64,000 bases of DNA, taken from positions 3,299 through 67,298 of the forward strand of contig CAYLJD010000001.1 of NCBI GenBank assembly GCA_964383875.1, read 5' to 3'. A program made the position numbers and the translations under genes. The DNA is from an uncultured Halobacteriales archaeon. GTDB lineage: Archaea; Halobacteriota; Halobacteria; Halobacteriales; Haloarculaceae. The stretch's first letter is position 1. Each line of letters starts with the position of its first letter. The notes beneath the pieces are model-generated. The model did no database searches and had not been told where the DNA came from. It was given only the letters and a program-made list of their open reading frames with translations. Below are positions 931-14,542 of the stretch, piece after piece.

Positions 931-2304
931 CTACGGGGGCGAGTCCGAGACGGCCTCGAGGAGCGCAAGCGTCCGGTCCGAGAGCGACGCCGGGGTCTCC
1001 GCGAGGAGCTTTAGGATCGGCTCTTTACCCACGTCACCGCGATCGATCACTGCCGCCGGCGTCTCCTCGGTTGACTCCAGGGCTTGCCGCGCCGCCCATC
1101 CCATCGTGCGTCCGTCGGCGGCCTTGACGCTCTCCGGCTCGGCGTCTCGGTCGTACTCGGCGATCGGCCCATCGAGGACGTCAAGCGACGCTTCCACGGC
1201 TGAATCGAAGCGACAGTTCACGGCAAATTGGAGGCCGGGATCGATCTCGCGGGCAGCGAGGAGGAAGCGAGCAACGTGACTCGATGCGCCAAAGCGGACG
1301 CCGCGGTGTGCCCGTGCGCCGTCGAGCGTCCGCGTGATTCGGCCCTCCACCGCTGCGCACTCCCCCGGCTCCTCTGCGTACGGCGTCGCGCCCACGACGT
1401 TCATGCCGACTTCAGGGACAAGCGGCGCGACGTCCGCCGACTCGAACGCGGCAACGATCCCGGACACCCGTTCAGCCGTGGGATCCCGTTCGGCCTGCTC
1501 TCGAAGGGCGACCATGTGGTGGACGGCACCCGGTCCCTCGCCGACGTCGAGGGGATATCGGACGGCACGCGCCAGCAAATCGATTCCACTATGGACCGCC
1601 GACTGGAGCTCGTCACCGTGGGCAAGGCGGGTGGCGATCGCCGAAGACAGTGTACAGCCGGAACCATGGGTGGCGTCCGTGGCCACGCGGGGGTGGGTAA
1701 TCGATTCCACCCCATCGTGGGTCGCGAGAACGTCCGTGACCGCCTCGCCCGGGAGGTGGCCACCTTTGACGAGGGCCGAATCGGCACCCATCTCCACGAT
1801 CGCTTTGGCAGCAGCTTCGGCACTCTCGGTGTCCGTCACGTCAATGTCCGTGAGCACCCCGGCTTCGTCGGCGTTGGGGGTGGCAAGCGTCGCCCCAGCA
1901 ATCAGGTCCTCATAGGCGGCCTCGGCCGCGGGTTCGAGGAGGCGATCGCCCGACGCCGCAACCATCACGGGGTCGACGACAATCGGGACGTTGAGGGTGG
2001 TCGCGTGCTCGGCAACCAGTTCGACGATCGGCCGGGTCGCGAGCATTCCGGTTTTGACCGCCGCCACGTCGAAGTCGTCGAACACGGCGTCGATCTGCGC
2101 CGCAACCTCGTCGACGGGGAGAACGTGAGTACTTTCGACGCCCCGCGTGTGCTGTGCCGTGACACTCGTAATGGCGCTGGTCCCGAACCCGCCCACCGCC
2201 TCAATCGTCTTGAGGTCAGCCTGAATGCCGGCACCGCCGCCGGAGTCGCTCCCGGCAATCGTACAGACGACCGGAGGTGAGACCGGCGCGGGGGTGCGAG
2301 TCAT
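931..2304 (-). CDS. thiDN: bifunctional HMP/HMP-P kinase + ThiN-type thiamine-phosphate synthase (ThiDN)
   Basis: The N-terminal half carries ThiD motifs (TIAGSDSGGGAGIQADLKT, THGSGCTLSSAIA). The C-terminal half looks like the archaeal ThiN domain. ATG at 2304 (MTRTP...) is preferred over the track's TTG at 2331. Confidence 0.88.
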   Translation of the reverse strand: MTRTPAPVSPPVVCTIAGSDSGGGAGIQADLKTIEAVGGFGTSAITSVTAQHTRGVESTHVLPVDEVAAQIDAVFDDFDVAAVKTGMLATRPIVELVAEHATTLNVPIVVDPVMVAASGDRLLEPAAEAAYEDLIAGATLATPNADEAGVLTDIDVTDTESAEAAAKAIVEMGADSALVKGGHLPGEAVTDVLATHDGVESITHPRVATDATHGSGCTLSSAIATRLAHGDELQSAVHSGIDLLARAVRYPLDVGEGPGAVHHMVALREQAERDPTAERVSGIVAAFESADVAPLVPEVGMNVVGATPYAEEPGECAAVEGRITRTLDGARAHRGVRFGASSHVARFLLAAREIDPGLQFAVNCRFDSAVEASLDVLDGPIAEYDRDAEPESVKAADGRTMGWAARQALESTEETPAAVIDRGDVGKEPILKLLAETPASLSDRTLALLEAVSDSPP

Positions 2305-2475
2305 AAGTGATGGTATCAGCCGGTTGTACAAAGAGGTGGTGACAGCTGCCCGTCTCGGACGTCACGGCCGGTTCCTAGAATGGTACTAAGGTACATTGAG
2401 ATGATCGCCGGAAAACTTATACGGAGCCCGGCGCCTCCCATCAGATAACGGGATCAGGACATCCCTCCCACGACG

Positions 2476-6639: not shown

Positions 6640-8268
6640 TCAGCGCCCCTCGAGGAACGACGCCGCGCCCGCTGGATCCACCTCACCAGACATGGTTGTC
6701 AGGGGGACGTCCAACAACCGGTTGTCGTCCATTAGGTCCGCCCAGTACTCGGGCACTGGTTCTAATCCAGTCAGGTCGCTCTGCCAGTTCAGGTCTCGGG
6801 CGGACTCGAGGTAGTCGGCATAGTCGGACGAGTCGTTCGGCGTCTCCGGGAAGTCGCTCCACCCGGTCCCGGTCCCGATCTGTGCCGGCACCTCTTCTTG
6901 GGCGAACCCGTCGAACAGGAGATAGTAGTTGTCGGCGACCAGCGGCGGAAGCTCCCAGAGATCCAGTTCGTCGGTGACGTAGTCGTACGTCCCGGTCTTC
7001 CGGAGGAGGGGGACGAGCATCCCGACGTAGTACGTGATCGCCCCATTGATGACCTTCTGGCGACGGGAGAGCCGCGTTGTCCGCTCGTACCACTCGATGA
7101 CGGCGTCGTTGGCCCTCCCAGCCAGGTCGGCCATCTCGTCGAGGTCGGGGACCGACAACGACTCCCGGTCGATACCGCCCACTTGATCGAGCTCCTCCCG
7201 GACGAACATGCCGCCCCGTTCGACCGCGGCCAGGTAGTCGGCGGGGGCGGTGACCGTCGTGAGCGGACAGCGGATCTCCTGCAGATCGATCGCGTCTGGA
7301 TCCAGAACCATCGCGACGGTGACGCCGTAGGGCATGTCCCGGTCGGCTGCGATGTCGTTCCACGGGAGAAACGGTCGATTGAGCAACACGTCCCGCATGA
7401 GCAGCGGCTTGCCGTCTTCGACGAGATACGGACCGTTGTCGATGAGGCCCACCCGGTTGTCGTAGTGCATGAGGAACGAGAGCAACTCGAGCGCTGCGTT
7501 TGCGCGTCGGAAGGTCGACCGCTCGTCCTCGCCGATGTCCTGAAGGTTGTCGAGGACGTACTCGACAGTCGCTGGGGACTTGGCCCCGTTGACGTATCGA
7601 TTCTGGCTGGGATAGAGGTAGCCAGTCTCGTCGAACGTGGCGTACATCAAGGCTGCAGCCGTCGTGAGACAGACTTTGCGCTGTTCGACGTGGACGGGAT
7701 CGTCCGGATCGATCAGCTCGAGCAGATCCCACCCGATCGAGCCCCCGCTGGGGACACCGAGGAACGTCCACCCCGTCAACGTCGTGAGACCGGTCGCGAG
7801 TTCTTCGCGGGACTCCCGGCCCACCGCCAGGAGCCCGTCGATCCCGACCGTGTGAATGAGGAGCTTGAAGAACTCCGGCCACCGGGCCATGGCCCACGCG
7901 AACGAGAGTGCCTCGTATTCCTGCCTGGGGATGATCTCCGACTTGCCTTCCTGGGCACGCAATGCGAGGGCGTCGTAGACGTTCCACGCGTGGTAGTTCT
8001 GGAGGTCGTTGAACTCCGCCCGAGAGAGGCCGCGGGCGAAGTGATCCCGTGAAATCGCCCCATCGAGGAGATCCGTCTCGAGGTACTCGCGCATCTGGCG
8101 GTCACCCGAGATGCCGTCGGGGACGAGATTCAGATCGTACACTTCTGCCATCCGGAAGAACGGGAACTCGTCGTTGAACGTCATCCCCTCGGCGTCGGGC
8201 GCAAACTGGGACAGGTACTGGTAGTCACCGAGGTCGCCCTCCTGGACCTGCGTGACGACGTCCCGCAT
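6640..8268 (-). CDS. uncharacterized acidic soluble protein (542 aa), last gene of the swivel-domain operon
   Basis: ATG 8268 shares one nt with the upstream stop (TGATG at 8270-8266). The frame is long and GC3-rich, and the protein is acidic with no TM helices. I recognise no nucleotide-binding or other family motif by eye. Confidence 0.8.
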   Translation of the reverse strand: MRDVVTQVQEGDLGDYQYLSQFAPDAEGMTFNDEFPFFRMAEVYDLNLVPDGISGDRQMREYLETDLLDGAISRDHFARGLSRAEFNDLQNYHAWNVYDALALRAQEGKSEIIPRQEYEALSFAWAMARWPEFFKLLIHTVGIDGLLAVGRESREELATGLTTLTGWTFLGVPSGGSIGWDLLELIDPDDPVHVEQRKVCLTTAAALMYATFDETGYLYPSQNRYVNGAKSPATVEYVLDNLQDIGEDERSTFRRANAALELLSFLMHYDNRVGLIDNGPYLVEDGKPLLMRDVLLNRPFLPWNDIAADRDMPYGVTVAMVLDPDAIDLQEIRCPLTTVTAPADYLAAVERGGMFVREELDQVGGIDRESLSVPDLDEMADLAGRANDAVIEWYERTTRLSRRQKVINGAITYYVGMLVPLLRKTGTYDYVTDELDLWELPPLVADNYYLLFDGFAQEEVPAQIGTGTGWSDFPETPNDSSDYADYLESARDLNWQSDLTGLEPVPEYWADLMDDNRLLDVPLTTMSGEVDPAGAASFLEGR

Positions 8269-8696
8269 CAGTCCGCACCCCCAACGTCGCGGACGGTACC
8301 CGTCACTGTCGCCCCATCGGTCTCGGTCGTCATACTCACGGTCCGACCATCGAGGTAGTCCCCCCATTCGGCAAAGAACTCGTCCGTGCCGGGATCGGCG
8401 GCGACAAGGTCGGCTACCGGCTCGATGCTCATCACGCACGGCACGTCGTACTCGCGCGACAGAATGCCGAGGTGGCTCGTCGGGGCGCCCTCCATCGTGA
8501 GCAGCCCGTGAACGTCGTTGGCCAACAACGGCGACGCGAACGCGCTCGTCCCGGCGCGGACAAGCGCGATCACGTCCGAAAGGTCACCCCCAGTGAGTTC
8601 CATGACGGCCGCCGGCGTCGTCACGTGGTGCACAGTCCCCCTGACCTCGCCGTCAAGGTCGAACACGGCTCTCCCCTCCGCGAGCGTGGAAGCCAT
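8268..8696 (-). CDS. stand-alone PEP-utilizing enzyme mobile ('swivel') phosphohistidine domain protein, paralog 2
   Basis: The core motif MEGAPTSHLGILSREYDVPCVM matches the PEP-utilizer mobile-domain signature G-G-x-T-S-H-x-A-I-x-A-R-E-x-G-I-P. The start is ATG 8696 (MASTLAEG), with an alternative GTG at 8714. Confidence 0.8.
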   Translation of the reverse strand: MASTLAEGRAVFDLDGEVRGTVHHVTTPAAVMELTGGDLSDVIALVRAGTSAFASPLLANDVHGLLTMEGAPTSHLGILSREYDVPCVMSIEPVADLVAADPGTDEFFAEWGDYLDGRTVSMTTETDGATVTGTVRDVGGAD

Positions 8697-8747
8697 GTGG
8701 CCGTGTGACACCACCGGCTTACTAAAGCGTGCCGTCCGTCCAGACCG

Positions 8748-9179
8748 CTACTCGGGGAACGTCACGGTTCCAGCAGTGCCGTCGATGCGAACCCGGTCGC
8801 CCGCGTCGACGGTCCGATTCTCAACCGACAGTTGCCCGGCATCTGTATCGATTGAGAGTGCCTGGCACCCCACGACCGCCGGCGTATCGAACTCGCGGGC
8901 CACAATCGCCGCGTGTGAGGTCTGCCCTCCCTCGCTGGTGAGCACGCCAGTGGCCGCTTCGATCGCTGGGGTGTCGGCTGGGACGGTCATCTCCCGGACG
9001 AGAATGATTGACTCCCCGGCCGAGGAGCGTGTGACCGTCTCCACTGGGGAGAAACAGATCGCTCCCTCAGCGACGCCCGGCGCCGCTCCGAGTCCCGAGA
9101 GTTCCACCTCCGGCATGGGATGAGGCTGAACGAGGGGGCCAATAATCCTATCCCCACCGCCATCCTGGTCACCCAACAT
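8748..9179 (-). CDS. stand-alone PEP-utilizing enzyme mobile ('swivel') phosphohistidine domain protein, paralog 1
   Basis: It has a canonical swivel motif (SEGGQTSHAAIVAREFDTPAVVG) preceded by GLGAAPGVAEGAI. ATG 9179 overlaps the DCC gene stop by 11 nt. An alternative ATG lies at 9116. Confidence 0.85.
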   Translation of the reverse strand: MLGDQDGGGDRIIGPLVQPHPMPEVELSGLGAAPGVAEGAICFSPVETVTRSSAGESIILVREMTVPADTPAIEAATGVLTSEGGQTSHAAIVAREFDTPAVVGCQALSIDTDAGQLSVENRTVDAGDRVRIDGTAGTVTFPE

Positions 9180-9660
9180 CTGCCACGGTCCCAGAATCCG
9201 CCGTCACGTCGTCCTGATCGGTCCCCTCGGAGGGGCGGCCGTCGCTGACGAGAAACCGATCCGCGACGTCAGCAGTCGGAACCATACACGCCTCGCGTCG
9301 GCCGAAAATGCGGTAGCGATGGGTCGCGATCAGGTCGTAGACCGCGTCACGAAGCGGACGGGGGACGTACCGGAACGGCGAGAGCAGTCGGTACCGTCCG
9401 CCCAATCGACTCGCGACGCGAACTGCGGCCTCGGACTTCGTGTAGCACTCGCCATCGGCCACGAGGACCCACGTGTTCCGCTGCGCCGGGTCCATGCCGC
9501 ACGCGGCGAGCAACGACGCACCCGGATCCGACTGAATAGGGGCGAACCGGAACTCCCCGGCCGGGTCCCGACGGATCACGAACTGGACGCCCCAGTTACA
9601 GAGATTGCAGACCCCGTCGAACAGCACCACCGGGTGGTCGGTTTCGACGGATCCCGACAT
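9169..9660 (-). CDS. thiol-disulfide oxidoreductase DCC family protein (DUF393)
   Basis: The N-terminal motif VLFDGVCNLCNWGVQFVIRRD (CxxC) is typical of the DCC/DUF393 family. Starts at ATG 9660. Confidence 0.8.
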   Translation of the reverse strand: MSGSVETDHPVVLFDGVCNLCNWGVQFVIRRDPAGEFRFAPIQSDPGASLLAACGMDPAQRNTWVLVADGECYTKSEAAVRVASRLGGRYRLLSPFRYVPRPLRDAVYDLIATHRYRIFGRREACMVPTADVADRFLVSDGRPSEGTDQDDVTADSGTVADVG

Positions 9661-9873: not shown

Positions 9874-11394
9874 ATGACATCGCCGCGGGTGGAGGCGTCC
9901 GTGCTGACGGACGCGCTCCCTGACCCGAGGACGGCGCCGAACGTCAGGCACAATCCGACGTTCGAGACGCTGCGGGACCTGGCGGCGGACGACGAGACGA
10001 CCACCGAATTCGGGAGTCCGAGCTACGTCAGCGACCAGCGATCGCGCAGTGCCGACTGTACGAAGAATCTGATTGACGATCCTTTCGACGACGGCGATTG
10101 GGGCGCCATTCAGGACGCCCTCGACATCGCTGCCGAAACCGACCTCGTCTGTCTGGATCGGCGGCTCGGCCGGCATCCGGAAACTTCGTACATCTGTCGG
10201 CTCTACGTCCCGACAGACTTCGCCCGGATTGCGCTCGCCTGGGGGAAGCTCCTCGAACCGGCCGACGGCGACCCGGACTTTCGGACCCTCCAGCTTCCGG
10301 ACTGGGACGCCCGCGAACACTGCCGGCGCCGCATCCGTGTCCTCCCGGACGAGGGGTTGACGTTCGTGCTCGGGAGCGACTACACCGGCGAGGCCAAGAA
10401 GTCATTTCTCCGGCTGTTCATGTATCGCGTCAAACAACACGGAGGTCTCGGTCTCCACGCGGGGACCAAACGACTCAGGATCGAGGGAGACGGCGAACTG
10501 CGGACGGTCGGCCAGGCCTTCCTCGGACTGTCGGGAACCGGAAAGTCCACGCTGACCGGCCACGGCTGCTGGCTCGACGAGCCGGAATGGGCGCACATGC
10601 TCCAGGACGACGTGTGTGGTTTCCTCCCGGACGGACAGGTCACCGGGAGCGAGGGCCTCGGGCTGTACATCAAGACGTTGGGGCTCGACGAGAACGAACA
10701 GCCGCAACTCTACCGGGCGGCCACACACGAGAGTGCCGTCTTCGAGAACGTCGCCGTCGAGTCCGACGGGACCGTCGACTTCGACAACGACGACCTGACG
10801 GGAAACGGCCGAGCCGTTATCCAGCGTGAGTGCCTCGAAAGTGCCGCCGATGACATCGACCTCCAATCGATCGACCAGGTGTTTTTCATCACCCGGAACC
10901 CGCTGATGCCGCCGGTCGCCCGACTCACCCCCCGGCAGGCCGCGGTCGCGTTCATGCTGGGCGAATCAGTCCAGACCAGTGCTGGAGATCCAGACGCCGC
11001 CGGGGAGTCGATTCGCGTCGTCGGGACGAACCCCTTCATCATCGGGCCGGCGGGCGAGGAGGGGAACCGGTTCTACGAGTTGATCGCGGCAAACGACGTC
11101 GAGTGTTTCGTCATCAACACCGGCTACGTCGGCCCCGCCAAGGCCGACATCGGCGTCCGCGAGTCGGTCAACATTCTTGTTGGCGCCGCCCGGGGGGACC
11201 TCGAGTGGGACCACGACGACACGCTCGGGCTGGACATCCCGACGTCGGTGCCCGGAACGAACGTCCAGGTCTTCTATCCGCCGGACCACTACGAGGATTT
11301 CGAGGCTGAGGTAGCGGCGTTGCGCGCCGAACGCCGCGAGTACCTCGAGGCGTTCGAGTCGCTGGACGAGACCATCATCGACGCGGTCTATTAA
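9874..11394 (+). CDS. pckA: phosphoenolpyruvate carboxykinase (ATP)
   Basis: Motifs are characteristic of ATP-dependent PEPCK: kinase-1a GLSGTGKSTL, GSDYTGEAKKS, and NGRAVI...FFITRNPLMPPV. Confidence 0.9.
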   Translation: MTSPRVEASVLTDALPDPRTAPNVRHNPTFETLRDLAADDETTTEFGSPSYVSDQRSRSADCTKNLIDDPFDDGDWGAIQDALDIAAETDLVCLDRRLGRHPETSYICRLYVPTDFARIALAWGKLLEPADGDPDFRTLQLPDWDAREHCRRRIRVLPDEGLTFVLGSDYTGEAKKSFLRLFMYRVKQHGGLGLHAGTKRLRIEGDGELRTVGQAFLGLSGTGKSTLTGHGCWLDEPEWAHMLQDDVCGFLPDGQVTGSEGLGLYIKTLGLDENEQPQLYRAATHESAVFENVAVESDGTVDFDNDDLTGNGRAVIQRECLESAADDIDLQSIDQVFFITRNPLMPPVARLTPRQAAVAFMLGESVQTSAGDPDAAGESIRVVGTNPFIIGPAGEEGNRFYELIAANDVECFVINTGYVGPAKADIGVRESVNILVGAARGDLEWDHDDTLGLDIPTSVPGTNVQVFYPPDHYEDFEAEVAALRAERREYLEAFESLDETIIDAVY

Positions 11395-11526
11395 GGCGCG
11401 TCGAGGGGAGTTTGTGACGTGGAGCTGTGAATCCCAAAGTCGGTGATCGGTCACCATCGCGCTCGGACGTGGCCGATGCACGACCGGGCCGACAGCTTTT
11501 GCCCCTCGGGCGCTCAGGGTCGGGCG

Positions 11527-12243
11527 ATGGACCGACGTCGGTTTCTGGTGACGAGCGCCACCGCGGCCATCGCTGGGTGTCTCGGCGGGACCCCCACGGG
11601 ATCCGGATCCACCGCCCCAAACAGCACAAACACCTCGTCCTCGCCGACTGACAACGGAGGCGCACAACTGACCGACCACCCGGCTGCGCAGGCGCTGGCG
11701 ACGCAGCCGGTCCGTGGTCCGGATCCACCCGAGGCACCCGGCCTGATCGTGGCCTTCGAAGATCCTTCGTGTCCGACCTGTCGACGTTTCGAACAGAACG
11801 TCGTGCCGACGATCCGTCGCGAACTGATCGAGCCCGGCGACGTGGCCTACGTCTTTCGGGGGTACCCGGTCGTCTATCCCTGGGGCGAACCGGCGGTTCG
11901 GGCACTCGAATCGACCTACGCGCGTGACCCGGCCGCCCACTGGGCACTCGTCGATCACTACTTCGACCAGCAGGAGGCGTACCGCCGTGCAGGCGTCGAC
12001 GCCGTCTACGAACGCACCGAAACGTTCCTCCAGGACGAGACGGAGCTCCAGGCAGGGAGTATTCTCGATGAGGCCAGGAACGGCCTCCACGACGAGGCAG
12101 TCCAGTCAGACCTGGATGCCGGCATGGCGGCCGGTGCCGGGCGAACGACCCCGCATCTCTTTCTGTTTCGAAACGGCGAGTTTCGGACGAAAACTGCCGG
12201 CCGTGTCAGCTACGACACGGTCTCCACCGTTTTGGGGTTCTGA
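11527..12243 (+). CDS. DsbA/thioredoxin-fold lipoprotein (Tat signal + lipobox, CPTC active site)
   Basis: Starts at ATG 11527. MDRRRFLVTSATAAIAGC combines a twin-arginine signal with a lipobox Cys. A Ser/Thr-rich linker follows, then EDPSCPTCRRFE (CxxC) in a DsbA-like fold. Confidence 0.8.
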   Translation: MDRRRFLVTSATAAIAGCLGGTPTGSGSTAPNSTNTSSSPTDNGGAQLTDHPAAQALATQPVRGPDPPEAPGLIVAFEDPSCPTCRRFEQNVVPTIRRELIEPGDVAYVFRGYPVVYPWGEPAVRALESTYARDPAAHWALVDHYFDQQEAYRRAGVDAVYERTETFLQDETELQAGSILDEARNGLHDEAVQSDLDAGMAAGAGRTTPHLFLFRNGEFRTKTAGRVSYDTVSTVLGF

Positions 12244-12830
12244 TGGTCCGGTTGCCAACGCGGCGATCGGACTGGCGGCTCCTCGCCCGGACAGTCAGGC
12301 TAGTCCTCGGGATCCCCTTCTATGCGGCTTTGGCGAGCCTCTACGCAGTGACCGCGGTGTCGGTCTTTGCCGTATCCCAGAATCTCGCGCTGGTCAAGTT
12401 CCTGCTGACGGGCCCGCTCGCCCTCTCCGATAGGGCCCGGATTTTCCTCGACCTCTACCCGATACTCGGACCGCTGTACCGCCCGGTCACCGGCGTTGCG
12501 CTCGTGGGCGTCGCCGTGCTCGTCGGCGTCGATCTGGCGCTCGTCACGTACCACGTCCGCGAGCACGGACTCTCGACCGAAGGGAGCAGCGGCAGTGCGG
12601 TTGGGGTGGTCCTCGGCGTCCTCGGTGCCGGCTGTGCGGCGTGTGGGTCGGCCATCCTCGTCGGTCTCCTCTCGCTCCTCGGCGGCGCGGGGCTGGTGAC
12701 GCTGCTGCCGCTGGAGGGGCTCGAGTTCACCGTCCTCGCGACTGGTGTCCTCGTCCTTTCGCTCTTCTGGCTCGCCGACGGGATGCGTGGCGGCGAGATC
12801 CGCGGCTGTCCGGTGGACGGACAGCGTTGA
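12243..12830 (+). CDS. integral membrane protein with intramembrane CxxC (GAGCAACGSA), coupled to the DsbA-like gene
   Basis: ATG 12243 shares one nt with the upstream TGA (TGATG). The protein has about 4 TM helices, CAAC at the start of a TM helix, and an extra Cys near the C-terminus (RGCPVDG). Confidence 0.75.
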   Translation: MVRLPTRRSDWRLLARTVRLVLGIPFYAALASLYAVTAVSVFAVSQNLALVKFLLTGPLALSDRARIFLDLYPILGPLYRPVTGVALVGVAVLVGVDLALVTYHVREHGLSTEGSSGSAVGVVLGVLGAGCAACGSAILVGLLSLLGGAGLVTLLPLEGLEFTVLATGVLVLSLFWLADGMRGGEIRGCPVDGQR

Positions 12831-12872: not shown

Positions 12873-13250
12873 ATGGCCACGGAGCCCGCCTTCGAGATTC
12901 CGTCGCGACCGGACCGGCGGTTTCCTGCGGGTGGCGGCGTCGAGTTTCACGGCGGGACTCGTTTCGATCTCCGGCCGTCCGAGACGCCCGATGACCTGAC
13001 GCTCCCGGACCTCGTCGCGGCTGTCCTGGAACGTGGTCCGTACCGCTTCGGCGAGTTCGTGGAGTTACCGATGCCGCTGTATCTCGTGCGCGACGACGAA
13101 ACAGGGGACGTCTTCCGCGTCTCGATTCGTGACGGCGCTGTCAGGCTCCACGTGTTACCGGAGACCGAGTCCACTGGCCTGCGGGCCTTCTACCAGCGGT
13201 TGGCCGACCGAGCGGCGGTCGAATGGTCGGTCGAAACGAGGGAAAACTGA
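12873..13250 (+). CDS. hypothetical acidic protein (125 aa)
   Basis: A clean ATG-initiated ORF with acidic composition and GC3-rich codons. No family is recognised. Confidence 0.6.
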   Translation: MATEPAFEIPSRPDRRFPAGGGVEFHGGTRFDLRPSETPDDLTLPDLVAAVLERGPYRFGEFVELPMPLYLVRDDETGDVFRVSIRDGAVRLHVLPETESTGLRAFYQRLADRAAVEWSVETREN

Positions 13251-13315
13251 GACGGGTGCAACCCCCGGGCAGAGAACCCATAACCGGTTTAGGGACCCCT
13301 CGCGTTCCTCCGGGC

Positions 13316-14542
13316 ATGACTGTCTCGCGCGAAGTCGAGCTCGAGGGCCACATCATCGACTCCGGAATGATGCAGGCCTGCTTCGGGATCATCATGGACA
13401 TGGGTGGATCCTTCGAGGTCGAAGAGTTCGACATCGGTCGCCACGAGACTGCCCACTCCTACGCCCGACTCCTCGTCGAGGCCGACGACGAGTCGACACT
13501 CCAGTCGATTCTGCACGAACTCCACCAGAACGGTGCGAACCCCTCTGACCCGAAAGACGCGACGCTGGAAGCCGCCCCGACCGACAACGTCGTCCCCGCC
13601 GGCTTTTATTCGACGACGAATCACCCGACCGAGGTGCGGGTCAATGGCGAGTGGCTCGCGGTCGAGAACATCGAGATGGACTGTGCTGTCGTTGTCGAAC
13701 CGGACAAACCACGAGCCTACACTGAGACGCTGAACGCCATCGAGGCTGGCGACCTGGTCGTCACGGGTGAAACCGGCATTCGCGTCCATCCACCTGAGCG
13801 TCCCAGAGACCGCGAGGGGGCGTTTGGATTCATGCAGGGCGGGGTCTCATCGGAGCGGCCCTCGGAGTCGACGATATCCGAAGTGGCCGAAGCGATCCGG
13901 GAGACCAAGCGCGAGGGGGGCGAGATTCTGGCCGTCTGTGGCCCGGCGCTCATCCACTCGGGAGCCCGAGAAGACCTCGCGCGCCTCGTCCGTGAAGGCT
14001 ACGTCGACATGCTCTCGACTGGCAACGGCTTCGCCGTCCACGATCTCGAGCGGGACATCTTCGGGACGTCTCTCGGGATGGACACCGAGAGTCTGGACCA
14101 CCCTCGCAAAGGCCACAAGCACCACATTTACACGATCAGTGAGATCATCCGGGCGGGCGGCATCGCGTCCGCGATCGAGTCGGGTACCGTCGAATCCGGC
14201 GTCATGTACGAGTGCGAAGAAAACGACGTGCCGTACGTCATCGCCGGATCGATCCGCGACGACGGGCCGCTCCCCGAGACGATCACCGACGCAATCGAGG
14301 CCCAGGAAGCGATCCGGGAGCAGGCTCACCGAGCGGATCTGGTCCTCATGCTCTCGACGCTGCTCCACTCGGTCGCCGTCGGCAACTGCCTCCCCTCGAC
14401 GACCCGGACCGTCTGTGTCGACATCAATCCCGCGACGGTCACCCAGCTCCTCGACCGGGGGAGTGCCCAGGCAGTCGGCATGGTCACCGACATCGGTACG
14501 TTCGTGCCGATTCTCGCCGAGCACCTCTTCGGCGAGCGGTGA
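13316..14542 (+). CDS. TIGR00300-type protein (LOR/SDH-like N-domain; family that includes archaeal ornithine cyclodeaminase-type enzymes)
   Basis: Starts at ATG 13316. The N-terminal stretch VELEGHIIDSGMMQACFGIIMDMGGSFEVEEFDIG matches the LOR/SDH conserved region. A Rossmann-like C-terminal half follows. The family name is recalled from memory. Confidence 0.7.
   Translation: MTVSREVELEGHIIDSGMMQACFGIIMDMGGSFEVEEFDIGRHETAHSYARLLVEADDESTLQSILHELHQNGANPSDPKDATLEAAPTDNVVPAGFYSTTNHPTEVRVNGEWLAVENIEMDCAVVVEPDKPRAYTETLNAIEAGDLVVTGETGIRVHPPERPRDREGAFGFMQGGVSSERPSESTISEVAEAIRETKREGGEILAVCGPALIHSGAREDLARLVREGYVDMLSTGNGFAVHDLERDIFGTSLGMDTESLDHPRKGHKHHIYTISEIIRAGGIASAIESGTVESGVMYECEENDVPYVIAGSIRDDGPLPETITDAIEAQEAIREQAHRADLVLMLSTLLHSVAVGNCLPSTTRTVCVDINPATVTQLLDRGSAQAVGMVTDIGTFVPILAEHLFGER

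Follow-up and report, generated by a model that had tools for sequence, protein, structure and literature searches.

A haloarchaeal three-gene cassette as a candidate split member of an uncharacterised dual-swivel phosphohistidine transfer system

The enzymes that move phosphoryl groups on a phosphohistidine 'swivel' domain make up a small and well-studied set: pyruvate phosphate dikinase (PPDK), phosphoenolpyruvate (PEP) synthase, enzyme I of the phosphotransferase system (PTS), rifampin phosphotransferase (RPH) and the phenol dikinases. Each is defined by the domain that its swivel visits. Here we describe a cassette of three genes in a 64,000-nucleotide stretch of DNA from an uncultured Halobacteriales archaeon (contig CAYLJD010000001.1; the whole stretch is called the window below). 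It encodes two stand-alone swivel proteins, swivel A and swivel B, and a 542-residue protein, the orphan, that matched no family or fold in our searches. We propose, with a probability of about 0.55, that the cassette is a stripped-down, fully split member of an uncharacterised system for phosphohistidine transfer with two swivels, where the orphan serves as the donor or acceptor domain of swivel B. Far from being peculiar to haloarchaea, the cassette is a reduced offshoot, lacking the ATP-grasp, of a system that is widespread. The principle of a phosphohistidine swivel is well known; the orphan partner domain and the combination of two swivels are unfamiliar.

An earlier note, made from the letters of this DNA alone, had singled out four consecutive open reading frames (ORFs), and all four exist on the minus strand: a DCC1-like thiol-disulfide oxidoreductase (DCC, 9169-9660), swivel A (8748-9179), swivel B (8268-8714) and the orphan (6640-8268). 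The note took the two small proteins for bare swivel domains, and so they are. Both match the Pfam PEP-utilizers family, PF00391, above its gathering cut-off of 23.1 bits (swivel A, 2.4e-22 and 78.8 bits; swivel B, 2.5e-9 and 37 bits). Both also carry a T-S-H motif (GGQTSHAAIVAREF and GAPTSHLGILSREY), with the histidine in the G-x-T/S-S/C-H context of the family. These histidines had not been misaligned, as the note feared they might be: that of swivel A falls on the catalytic histidine of PPDK and that of swivel B on the catalytic histidine of RPH.

The two swivels are not the simple paralogues that the note supposed. Swivel A (8748..9116, minus strand) has 122 residues from ATG 9116, within an ORF that reaches ATG 9179 (143 residues); the codon of its His68 is 8915-8913. 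It aligns with residues 393-507 of the PPDK structure and with residues 374-501 of the NCBIfam PPDK model (3.4e-32), and its GGxTSHAAIVAR motif marks it as a bona fide PPDK/PEP synthase central domain. A 447-residue haloarchaeal protein (locus L001) joins a PPDK_N ATP-grasp domain to a swivel; swivel A shares 49% identity with its residues 330-443 and does not match it elsewhere. To judge from these sequence matches, swivel A is a carrier domain detached from the system's ATP-grasp protein, which is of the PPDK/PEP synthase type. Swivel B (8268..8696, minus strand) has 142 residues from ATG 8696, or 148 from GTG 8714, and its His75 is encoded at 8474-8472. Its best sequence match in the Protein Data Bank (PDB) is the swivel of RPH. 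Swivel B is the orphan's own divergent, cognate phosphohistidine domain.

Other swivel A homologues also stand alone: P0178, P0183, P0184 and a protein of metagenome contig L095. The order swivel A, swivel B, orphan, with a stand-alone swivel A, is repeated in locus L081, where the orphan is 79% identical to that of the window, and in locus L087. Because this order recurs in relatives, the cassette is not a decay product. Between the window and L081, dN/dS is 0.13 for swivel A and 0.15 for each of the other two genes, and we conclude from these values that all three are functional and under purifying selection.

What, then, is the orphan? It is encoded at 6640..8268 on the minus strand (542 residues from ATG) and represents the haloarchaeal long form, and founding member, of an uncharacterised family of swivel B-partner domains. 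As the note had said, the protein is acidic (pI 4.2; 96 Asp and Glu against 41 Lys and Arg). It has no match in Pfam, NCBIfam, PHROG or PADLOC, and specifically none to PEP-utilizers_C, PPDK_N, the PRK08296-type NCBIfam models, NF006149-53 or NF041857; the PHROG and PADLOC scans returned nothing relevant and so gave no phage or defence link for the cassette. Sequence searches of the PDB with the protein and with a profile of it gave noise only. A Pfam scan of 27 aligned family members found nothing but PF00391, in four fused members.

An AlphaFold2 model built from the 27-sequence alignment is confident (mean predicted local distance difference test (pLDDT) 93; predicted template modelling score (pTM) 0.93). 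As modelled, the orphan consists of long helices around an antiparallel sheet, with no (beta/alpha)8 barrel. Foldseek searches with this model against the PDB and the viral library BFVD gave nothing better than E ~1 and a TM-score of ~0.1; with these as the libraries, a 'new fold' here means one with no solved relative. As a positive control we modelled P0028, a natural fusion of a swivel to an orphan domain (pLDDT 82, pTM 0.72). Foldseek recovered its swivel from structures of pyruvate kinase, PPDK and RPH (~120 columns, probability 1.0), and its orphan part and C-terminal part matched nothing in the PDB. The RPH structures 5FBT, 5FBS and 5HV1 aligned to P0028 over ~119 swivel columns only. 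Given no family or fold match, and a control in which the swivel alone was recovered, we conclude that the orphan is neither an ATP-grasp nor a PEP-binding domain nor a substrate domain of the RPH/HpeH type. It does not have the architecture of the RPH, PpsA, CreH and HpeH substrate components, a RIF-binding-type domain followed by a C-terminal swivel. Nor does the cassette have the hallmarks of PEP synthase or PPDK: an N-terminal PPDK_N was found neither in the four genes by Pfam nor in the 64 kb by tblastn and a hidden Markov model (HMM), and for the C-terminal PEP-utilizers_C TIM barrel Pfam found no match in the orphan and 26 homologues and Foldseek aligned no PPDK or PEP synthase chain. 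The note's statement that the orphan has no recognisable ATP-grasp, P-loop or PEP-binding barrel thus stands.

Conservation in the orphan is concentrated in two blocks. The residues invariant in the 27-sequence alignment (A1) are R104, E107, G108, P114, R115, Q116, Y118 and E119 in one, and D270, R272, D277, G279, P280 and R292 in the other. Among 95 diverse members, conservation reaches 90% or more at R104, S110, P114 and Y118, and R272 is kept in 98%, G279 in 100%, P280 in 99% and R292 in 96%; D277, W303 and Y413 are further conserved positions. The first block, a loop and the start of a helix from R104 to E119 (LALRAQEGKSEIIPRQEYE, 7912..7959, minus strand), is the orphan's candidate active-site loop; the second runs from H268 to R292 (HYDNRVGLIDNGPY...R, 7393..7467, minus strand). 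Residues 101-114 are the least confident part of both models (pLDDT 58 and 47). Such a minimum in the R104-E119 stretch would fit a mobile loop.

We delimit the orphan family ourselves, not from a curated entry, by the motifs RAxEGxSxxIPRQEYE and HxDxRxGxxDxGPY...R, a length of ~380-540 residues and an adjacent or fused PF00391 domain of the swivel B type; the window's orphan has all of these. A word-indexed search with the orphan gave 28 close clusters, the four most distant of which (P0024 and P0026-28) are fused to an N-terminal PF00391 domain bearing the swivel B motif GAPTSHLGILSREYGIPCVMG. A profile search of 1.84 billion representatives returned 328 members of the family, with more N-terminal swivel-orphan fusions among the matches (P0031, P0098, P0117). 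One swivel B-orphan fusion, a 793-residue protein of Rhodococcus opacus, is annotated 'PEP-utilizing enzyme'. A genome scan with one genome per species found 114 orphan loci, most of them in Actinomycetota, where the hosts include Gordonia, Pseudonocardia, Nocardia, Rhodococcoides, Microbacterium and Solirubrobacterales. Outside that phylum the scan found two copies in one Halobacteriales metagenome-assembled genome and one gammaproteobacterial locus. A metagenome scan with the single orphan protein found nothing; with alignment A3 as the query, 12 loci were found.

The neighbours of the orphan were mapped by tblastn in 80 loci, 77 from the genome scan and three contigs found by exact look-up. 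A swivel B-type domain lies directly upstream of the orphan or is fused to it in 70 of the 80, a result that bears out the functional tie between orphan and swivel that the note proposed. A module of about 200 residues occurs somewhere in 47 loci, in 35 of them directly downstream of the orphan or fused to it. In 38 loci the flanks encode a PPDK_N ATP-grasp that carries a swivel A-type domain at its C-terminus, and in 16 loci swivel B, orphan, module and PPDK_N-swivel A are collinear. In these sequences the fuller system, found in Actinomycetota, some Proteobacteria and some haloarchaea, has three parts: a PEP-synthase-like protein that combines a PPDK_N ATP-grasp with a PPDK-type swivel A; a divergent swivel B fused or translationally coupled to the orphan domain of 380-540 residues and unknown fold; and the ~200-residue module, which has a predicted winged helix at its N-terminus and is joined to the orphan C-terminus or encoded next to the orphan. 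The N-terminus of the module gives repeated matches, below threshold, to winged helix-turn-helix (wHTH) families (MarR_2 0.0028, TrmB 0.004, HVO_A0261_N 0.002), and P0028 retains the helical part of the module without the wHTH. The haloarchaeal loci L005 and L085 have the orphan with swivel B only. The C-terminal 65 residues of the window's orphan were considered as a stand-in for the module and dropped, the alignment being poor there.

Several loci depart from the common layout. In L086 (6878-8420, on a 137-kb metagenome contig) PPDK_N and the 139-residue swivel that follows it are in different frames, through either a natural split or a frameshift; gene calling there put an antisense ORF across the PPDK_N region. 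In L057 (8001-10574), L059 (8001-10555) and L061 (5243-9131) orphan paralogues lie in tandem, some accompanied by a swivel and some not, and such tandems in actinobacterial loci hint at hetero-oligomeric assemblies. The PPDK_N-swivel protein of Rhodococcus oxybenzonivorans (L089, 11118-13625) has an extra C-terminal extension of ~330 residues with no Pfam match, possibly a degenerate PEP-binding domain.

On annotated plasmids the system lies within catabolic islands. On plasmid pROB02 of R. opacus B4, one arm encodes a ferredoxin reductase, a ferredoxin and the PPDK_N-swivel protein; the divergent arm encodes a P450, an aldehyde dehydrogenase (ALDH), a zinc-dependent alcohol dehydrogenase (Zn-ADH), an ADP-forming acyl-CoA synthetase, an APH/EcKL kinase, the 793-residue fusion, Y_phosphatase3 and another EcKL kinase. 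Plasmid pRB98 of R. oxybenzonivorans carries a split swivel B, orphan and module together with an 835-residue PPDK_N-swivel protein, preceded by a Baeyer-Villiger monooxygenase-like oxidoreductase, a hydrolase, an ALDH, an alcohol dehydrogenase and an AMP-ligase. A distant set in Methylibium PM1 adjoins the 2-hydroxyisobutyryl-CoA mutase genes, and its 200-residue module is annotated as a MarR-family regulator by the NCBI annotation pipeline (PGAP). Clusters of flanking ORFs recur for Zn-ADH (24 loci), short-chain dehydrogenases (SDR, 22) and Y_phosphatase3 (19), and also for AMP-ligase, acyl-CoA dehydrogenase, enoyl-CoA hydratase and APH; one large cluster of supposed neighbours proved to be antisense ORFs and was discarded. 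In haloarchaeal L095 the order is swivel A, SurE, His_Phos_1, module, Zn-ADH, APH, DUF7065, AMP-ligase, swivel B, orphan, ALDH. The Zn-ADH, ALDH, CoA ligase, APH-type kinase and phosphatase genes, recurrent in bacteria as well as archaea, point to a predicted role in the catabolism of alcohols, aldehydes or acids with a phosphorylated intermediate.

His_Phos_1 is adjacent in L001 and L085 as well. The haloarchaeal phosphatases near the system (His_Phos_1, with SurE in addition) lie at 159-806 in L001, 9695-10387 in L085 and 1452-2186 in L095; examples of Y_phosphatase3 near the actinobacterial system lie at 14065-14922 in L015 and 10844-11677 in L088. The presence of two unrelated phosphatase families beside the system suggests either a phosphorylated intermediate or a step that resets the phosphohistidine. 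Proteins with DUF7064 or DUF7065 are also found near the orphan, at 7378-8382 in L091, a betaproteobacterial plasmid, and at 5308-6336 in L095 and 3464-4501 in L085, both haloarchaeal. Literature searches on DUF7064/7065, on the Methylibium locus tags and on 'PEP-utilizing enzyme' in Rhodococcus omics gave nothing specific.

How are the genes of the window expressed, and does DCC belong with them? The note described a coupled operon of four genes in which swivel A overlaps DCC by 11 nucleotides and the CxxC protein may add redox control to a phosphotransfer enzyme. DCC is certainly a DCC1-like protein (PF04134, 1.8e-33, 116.6 bits against a cut-off of 27.8; CNLC at residues 18-21) of 163 residues, and it lies on the same strand (9169..9660, minus). 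The overlap with its stop codon depends on starting swivel A at ATG 9179. Public gene calls, retrieved from NCBI by exact-sequence look-up, give swivel A 122 residues from ATG 9116, swivel B 142 residues from ATG 8696 and the orphan 542 residues, and the closest swivel A homologues start at the residue equivalent to ATG 9116. With that start, a gap of 52 nucleotides separates DCC from swivel A. The gap holds an A/T-rich, TATA-like element, taggattatt (9141..9150, minus strand), ~29 nucleotides upstream of ATG 9116; scans for sigma-70 promoters do not apply to archaea, and the element was read directly from the sequence. L087 (GGTTATTAG) and L081 (CGTTTTGT) have a similar element at the same distance and no DCC gene upstream; in both, the 200-residue module lies divergently upstream, at the place of the window's DCC. 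We infer that the element is a putative archaeal promoter of the cassette's own.

DCC is absent from every related locus that we examined, more than 90 in all (none of the 80 loci by tblastn, nor any of the later haloarchaeal, plasmid and metagenome loci). Because the start at 9116 leaves a gap and DCC is missing from related loci, DCC falls outside the system and the unit is one of three genes; DCC is an unrelated upstream neighbour. Another thiol-redox gene, for a DsbA-like Thioredoxin_4 protein with a CPTC motif (11443-12243, plus strand), is on the far side of DCC. A four-gene, redox-controlled operon is therefore very improbable, and redox control by DCC finds no support. The gene-neighbourhood survey that the note proposed found the order swivel A, swivel B, orphan in L081 and L087 and no co-occurrence with DCC.

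The remaining junctions are as the note gave them. Swivel B and the orphan share TGATG (TGA 8270-8268, ATG 8268-8266), and an overlap of 1 or 4 nucleotides at this point is conserved among haloarchaeal relatives; swivels A and B are 33 or 51 nucleotides apart, depending on the start codon chosen for B. As part of the explanation that we favour, the genes of swivel A, swivel B and the orphan (8748-9116, 8268-8696, 6640-8268) would form one transcription unit, and we hold this to be somewhat more probable than its opposite. A 599-residue extension of the orphan from GTG 8439, overlapping the preceding gene, was rejected; homologue N-termini and the public call favour the start at 8268. Long overlapping ORFs across the orphan gene on both strands (6640-8439, minus; 6898-8052, plus; 6683-7987, minus) are high-GC artefacts.

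How might such a system work? We suggest that the histidine of swivel A would be phosphorylated by an ATP-grasp, converting ATP to AMP and Pi. The 64 kb of the window encode no ATP-grasp, so that in this genome it would have to be encoded elsewhere and work in trans. The phosphoryl group might then pass to the histidine of swivel B; alternatively, both carriers might be used in parallel. Swivel B would bring it into a pocket of the orphan rich in Arg, Asp and Glu (R104, R115, R272, R292, E107, E119, D270, D277), which may sit under the mobile conserved loop. There the phosphoryl group could be moved to or from a small catabolic intermediate. In a bolder form of this proposal, which we hold only tentatively and think rather unlikely as it stands, the system is a new dikinase-like class with a His-to-His relay. 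Swivel A, charged by the ATP-grasp, would pass phosphate to swivel B (or the two would carry the beta- and gamma-phosphates separately), and swivel B would supply a catalytic domain whose fold is missing from the PDB and whose target is a catabolic intermediate. The window's cassette would then be a reduced version, dependent on a housekeeping PEP synthase or PPDK for its ATP-grasp or PEP-binding domain.

Several points weigh against reading the cassette as a transfer system with the orphan as partner of swivel B. Its phosphotransfer and its substrate class are predictions, and the gathering of the conserved orphan residues into one pocket is assumed. To our knowledge all characterised dikinases manage with a single swivel, which leaves the need for two unexplained, and we know of no precedent for direct transfer from swivel to swivel. 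The winged helix of the 200-residue module hints at regulation, not catalysis. Four haloarchaeal orphans (L004, L082, L083, L084) have no swivel of any kind nearby. The window's 64 kb lack both PPDK_N (tblastn; best E 1.1 with a purpose-built HMM) and the module (tblastn; best E 0.013, likewise), and the cassette lacks the catabolic neighbours found elsewhere.

The main rival takes up the hint of the winged helix. In a regulatory phosphorelay, the orphan would be a ligand-sensing or regulated domain and the wHTH module the DNA-binding output that controls adjacent catabolic operons, much as the PTS controls PRD regulators. The sub-threshold wHTH matches and the PGAP name of the Methylibium homologue favour such a relay. 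The divergent transcription of the module from the cassette in L081 and L087 is a typical regulator layout, and members of the family adjoin varied catabolic clusters, with several paralogues per genome. Yet the near-invariant Arg, Asp, Glu, Gly and Pro residues of 95 diverse members suit a shared chemistry better than variable ligand sensing, and the same clusters already hold dedicated regulators (PucR-GAF, FCD/GntR). P0028, moreover, keeps the helical part of the module without its wHTH, and the module is missing altogether from the window and many other loci. We regard the relay as a serious but improbable alternative.

The other alternatives are disfavoured, as is the DCC-coupled operon. 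If the cassette were a relic that had lost its ATP-grasp and module, leaving three non-functional genes, the lack of both in the 64 kb would be accounted for, as would surroundings that are housekeeping and not the usual catabolic island. But the ORFs are intact, the catalytic histidines and T-S-H motifs are kept, the dN/dS values against a 79%-identical relative are low for each gene, and at least four independent sequences likewise have a swivel A that stands alone; decay is thus highly unlikely. Least probable of all, to the point of being barely tenable, is that the cassette is an ordinary split PEP synthase, PPDK or phenol dikinase of the PpsAB/HpeHI type, with the orphan a divergent PEP-binding or RPH-type substrate domain. 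Swivel A is indeed nearest in sequence to PPDK and PEP synthase, and split dikinases are known (PMC12167813). Against this, the orphan matches no PEP-utilizers_C, PPDK_N or PRK08296-type model, and Foldseek leaves it unaligned to RPH 5FBT and 5HV1 although the same search finds their swivel. Its modelled helices and antiparallel sheet do not form a (beta/alpha)8 barrel, and the swivel lies at the N-terminus instead of the C-terminus.

Among described systems, the two-component dikinases PpsAB, CreHI and HpeHI and the single-chain RPH come closest. In PpsAB, CreHI and HpeHI an RPH-type substrate domain carries one C-terminal swivel and the ATP-grasp component has none; the two-component dikinases lie in actinobacterial catabolic clusters, with a phosphatase step downstream (PMC12167813). 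The present system resembles PpsAB(C), CreHI and HpeHI in being made of several polypeptides, in having a swivel that would carry phosphate between the ATP-grasp and a distinct substrate domain, and in its catabolic clusters. It differs in that the partner domain has no detectable relative, its swivel precedes it or stands apart, two types of swivel are present, and the canonical ATP-grasp has a swivel of its own. The note's analogy with phenylphosphate synthase therefore holds for the split architecture and the swivel logic and fails for fold, domain order and number of swivels. With RPH the system shares the best solved match of swivel B and a likely logic of ATP-grasp to histidine to small-molecule hydroxyl; RPH, though, is a single chain of ATP-grasp, RIF-binding domain and swivel, and the orphan does not match the RIF-binding domain.

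PEP synthase and PPDK share their central domain with swivel A and their PPDK_N with the canonical partners, but the system has no PEP/pyruvate TIM barrel and the window no ATP-grasp. Like the PTS-type relays (EI-HPr-EIIA, DhaM), the cassette encodes small phosphohistidine carriers together, and passage from histidine to histidine between carriers may occur; unlike them, it lacks HPr, EIIA and EIIB folds and has swivels as both carriers, and the donor at canonical loci is an ATP-grasp, not a PEP-binding domain. We know of no described precedent for the dual-swivel design, and our literature searches found a system of this type described nowhere.

These results delimit a further swivel partner domain, present in at least 114 sequenced species, that has neither a family annotation nor a structural relative. 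Catabolic islands on plasmids of Rhodococcus and Methylibium carry the orphan system repeatedly, and naming the family offers a handle on an unassigned step in the catabolism of alcohols, ketones or hydrocarbons. The natural fusions and the fully split forms are clean constructs for probing transfer from swivel to swivel.

The surroundings of the cassette in the window are housekeeping genes: ThiD/ThiN, an ABC-2 transporter, MscS, PEP carboxykinase (PEPCK), a thioredoxin-like protein, an ArgZ-like protein, Usp, ZIP and a GHMP kinase. The ATP-dependent PEPCK (9874-11394, plus strand; NF006821, 4e-177) is divergent from DCC. Its apparent link to PEP chemistry looks coincidental, because no related locus has PEPCK nearby (0 of 80 by tblastn). 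The Thioredoxin_4 gene is followed by one for a 195-residue membrane protein with a GAGCAACGS motif, the pair spanning 11443-12830 on the plus strand; with DCC the two make up a loose thiol-redox neighbourhood, which may be the true functional context of DCC. A ThiD-ThiN fusion of phosphomethylpyrimidine kinase and thiamine-phosphate synthase (931-2331, minus strand) and an ArgZ-like/LOR-SDH protein (13223-14542, plus strand) are ordinary archaeal housekeeping genes.

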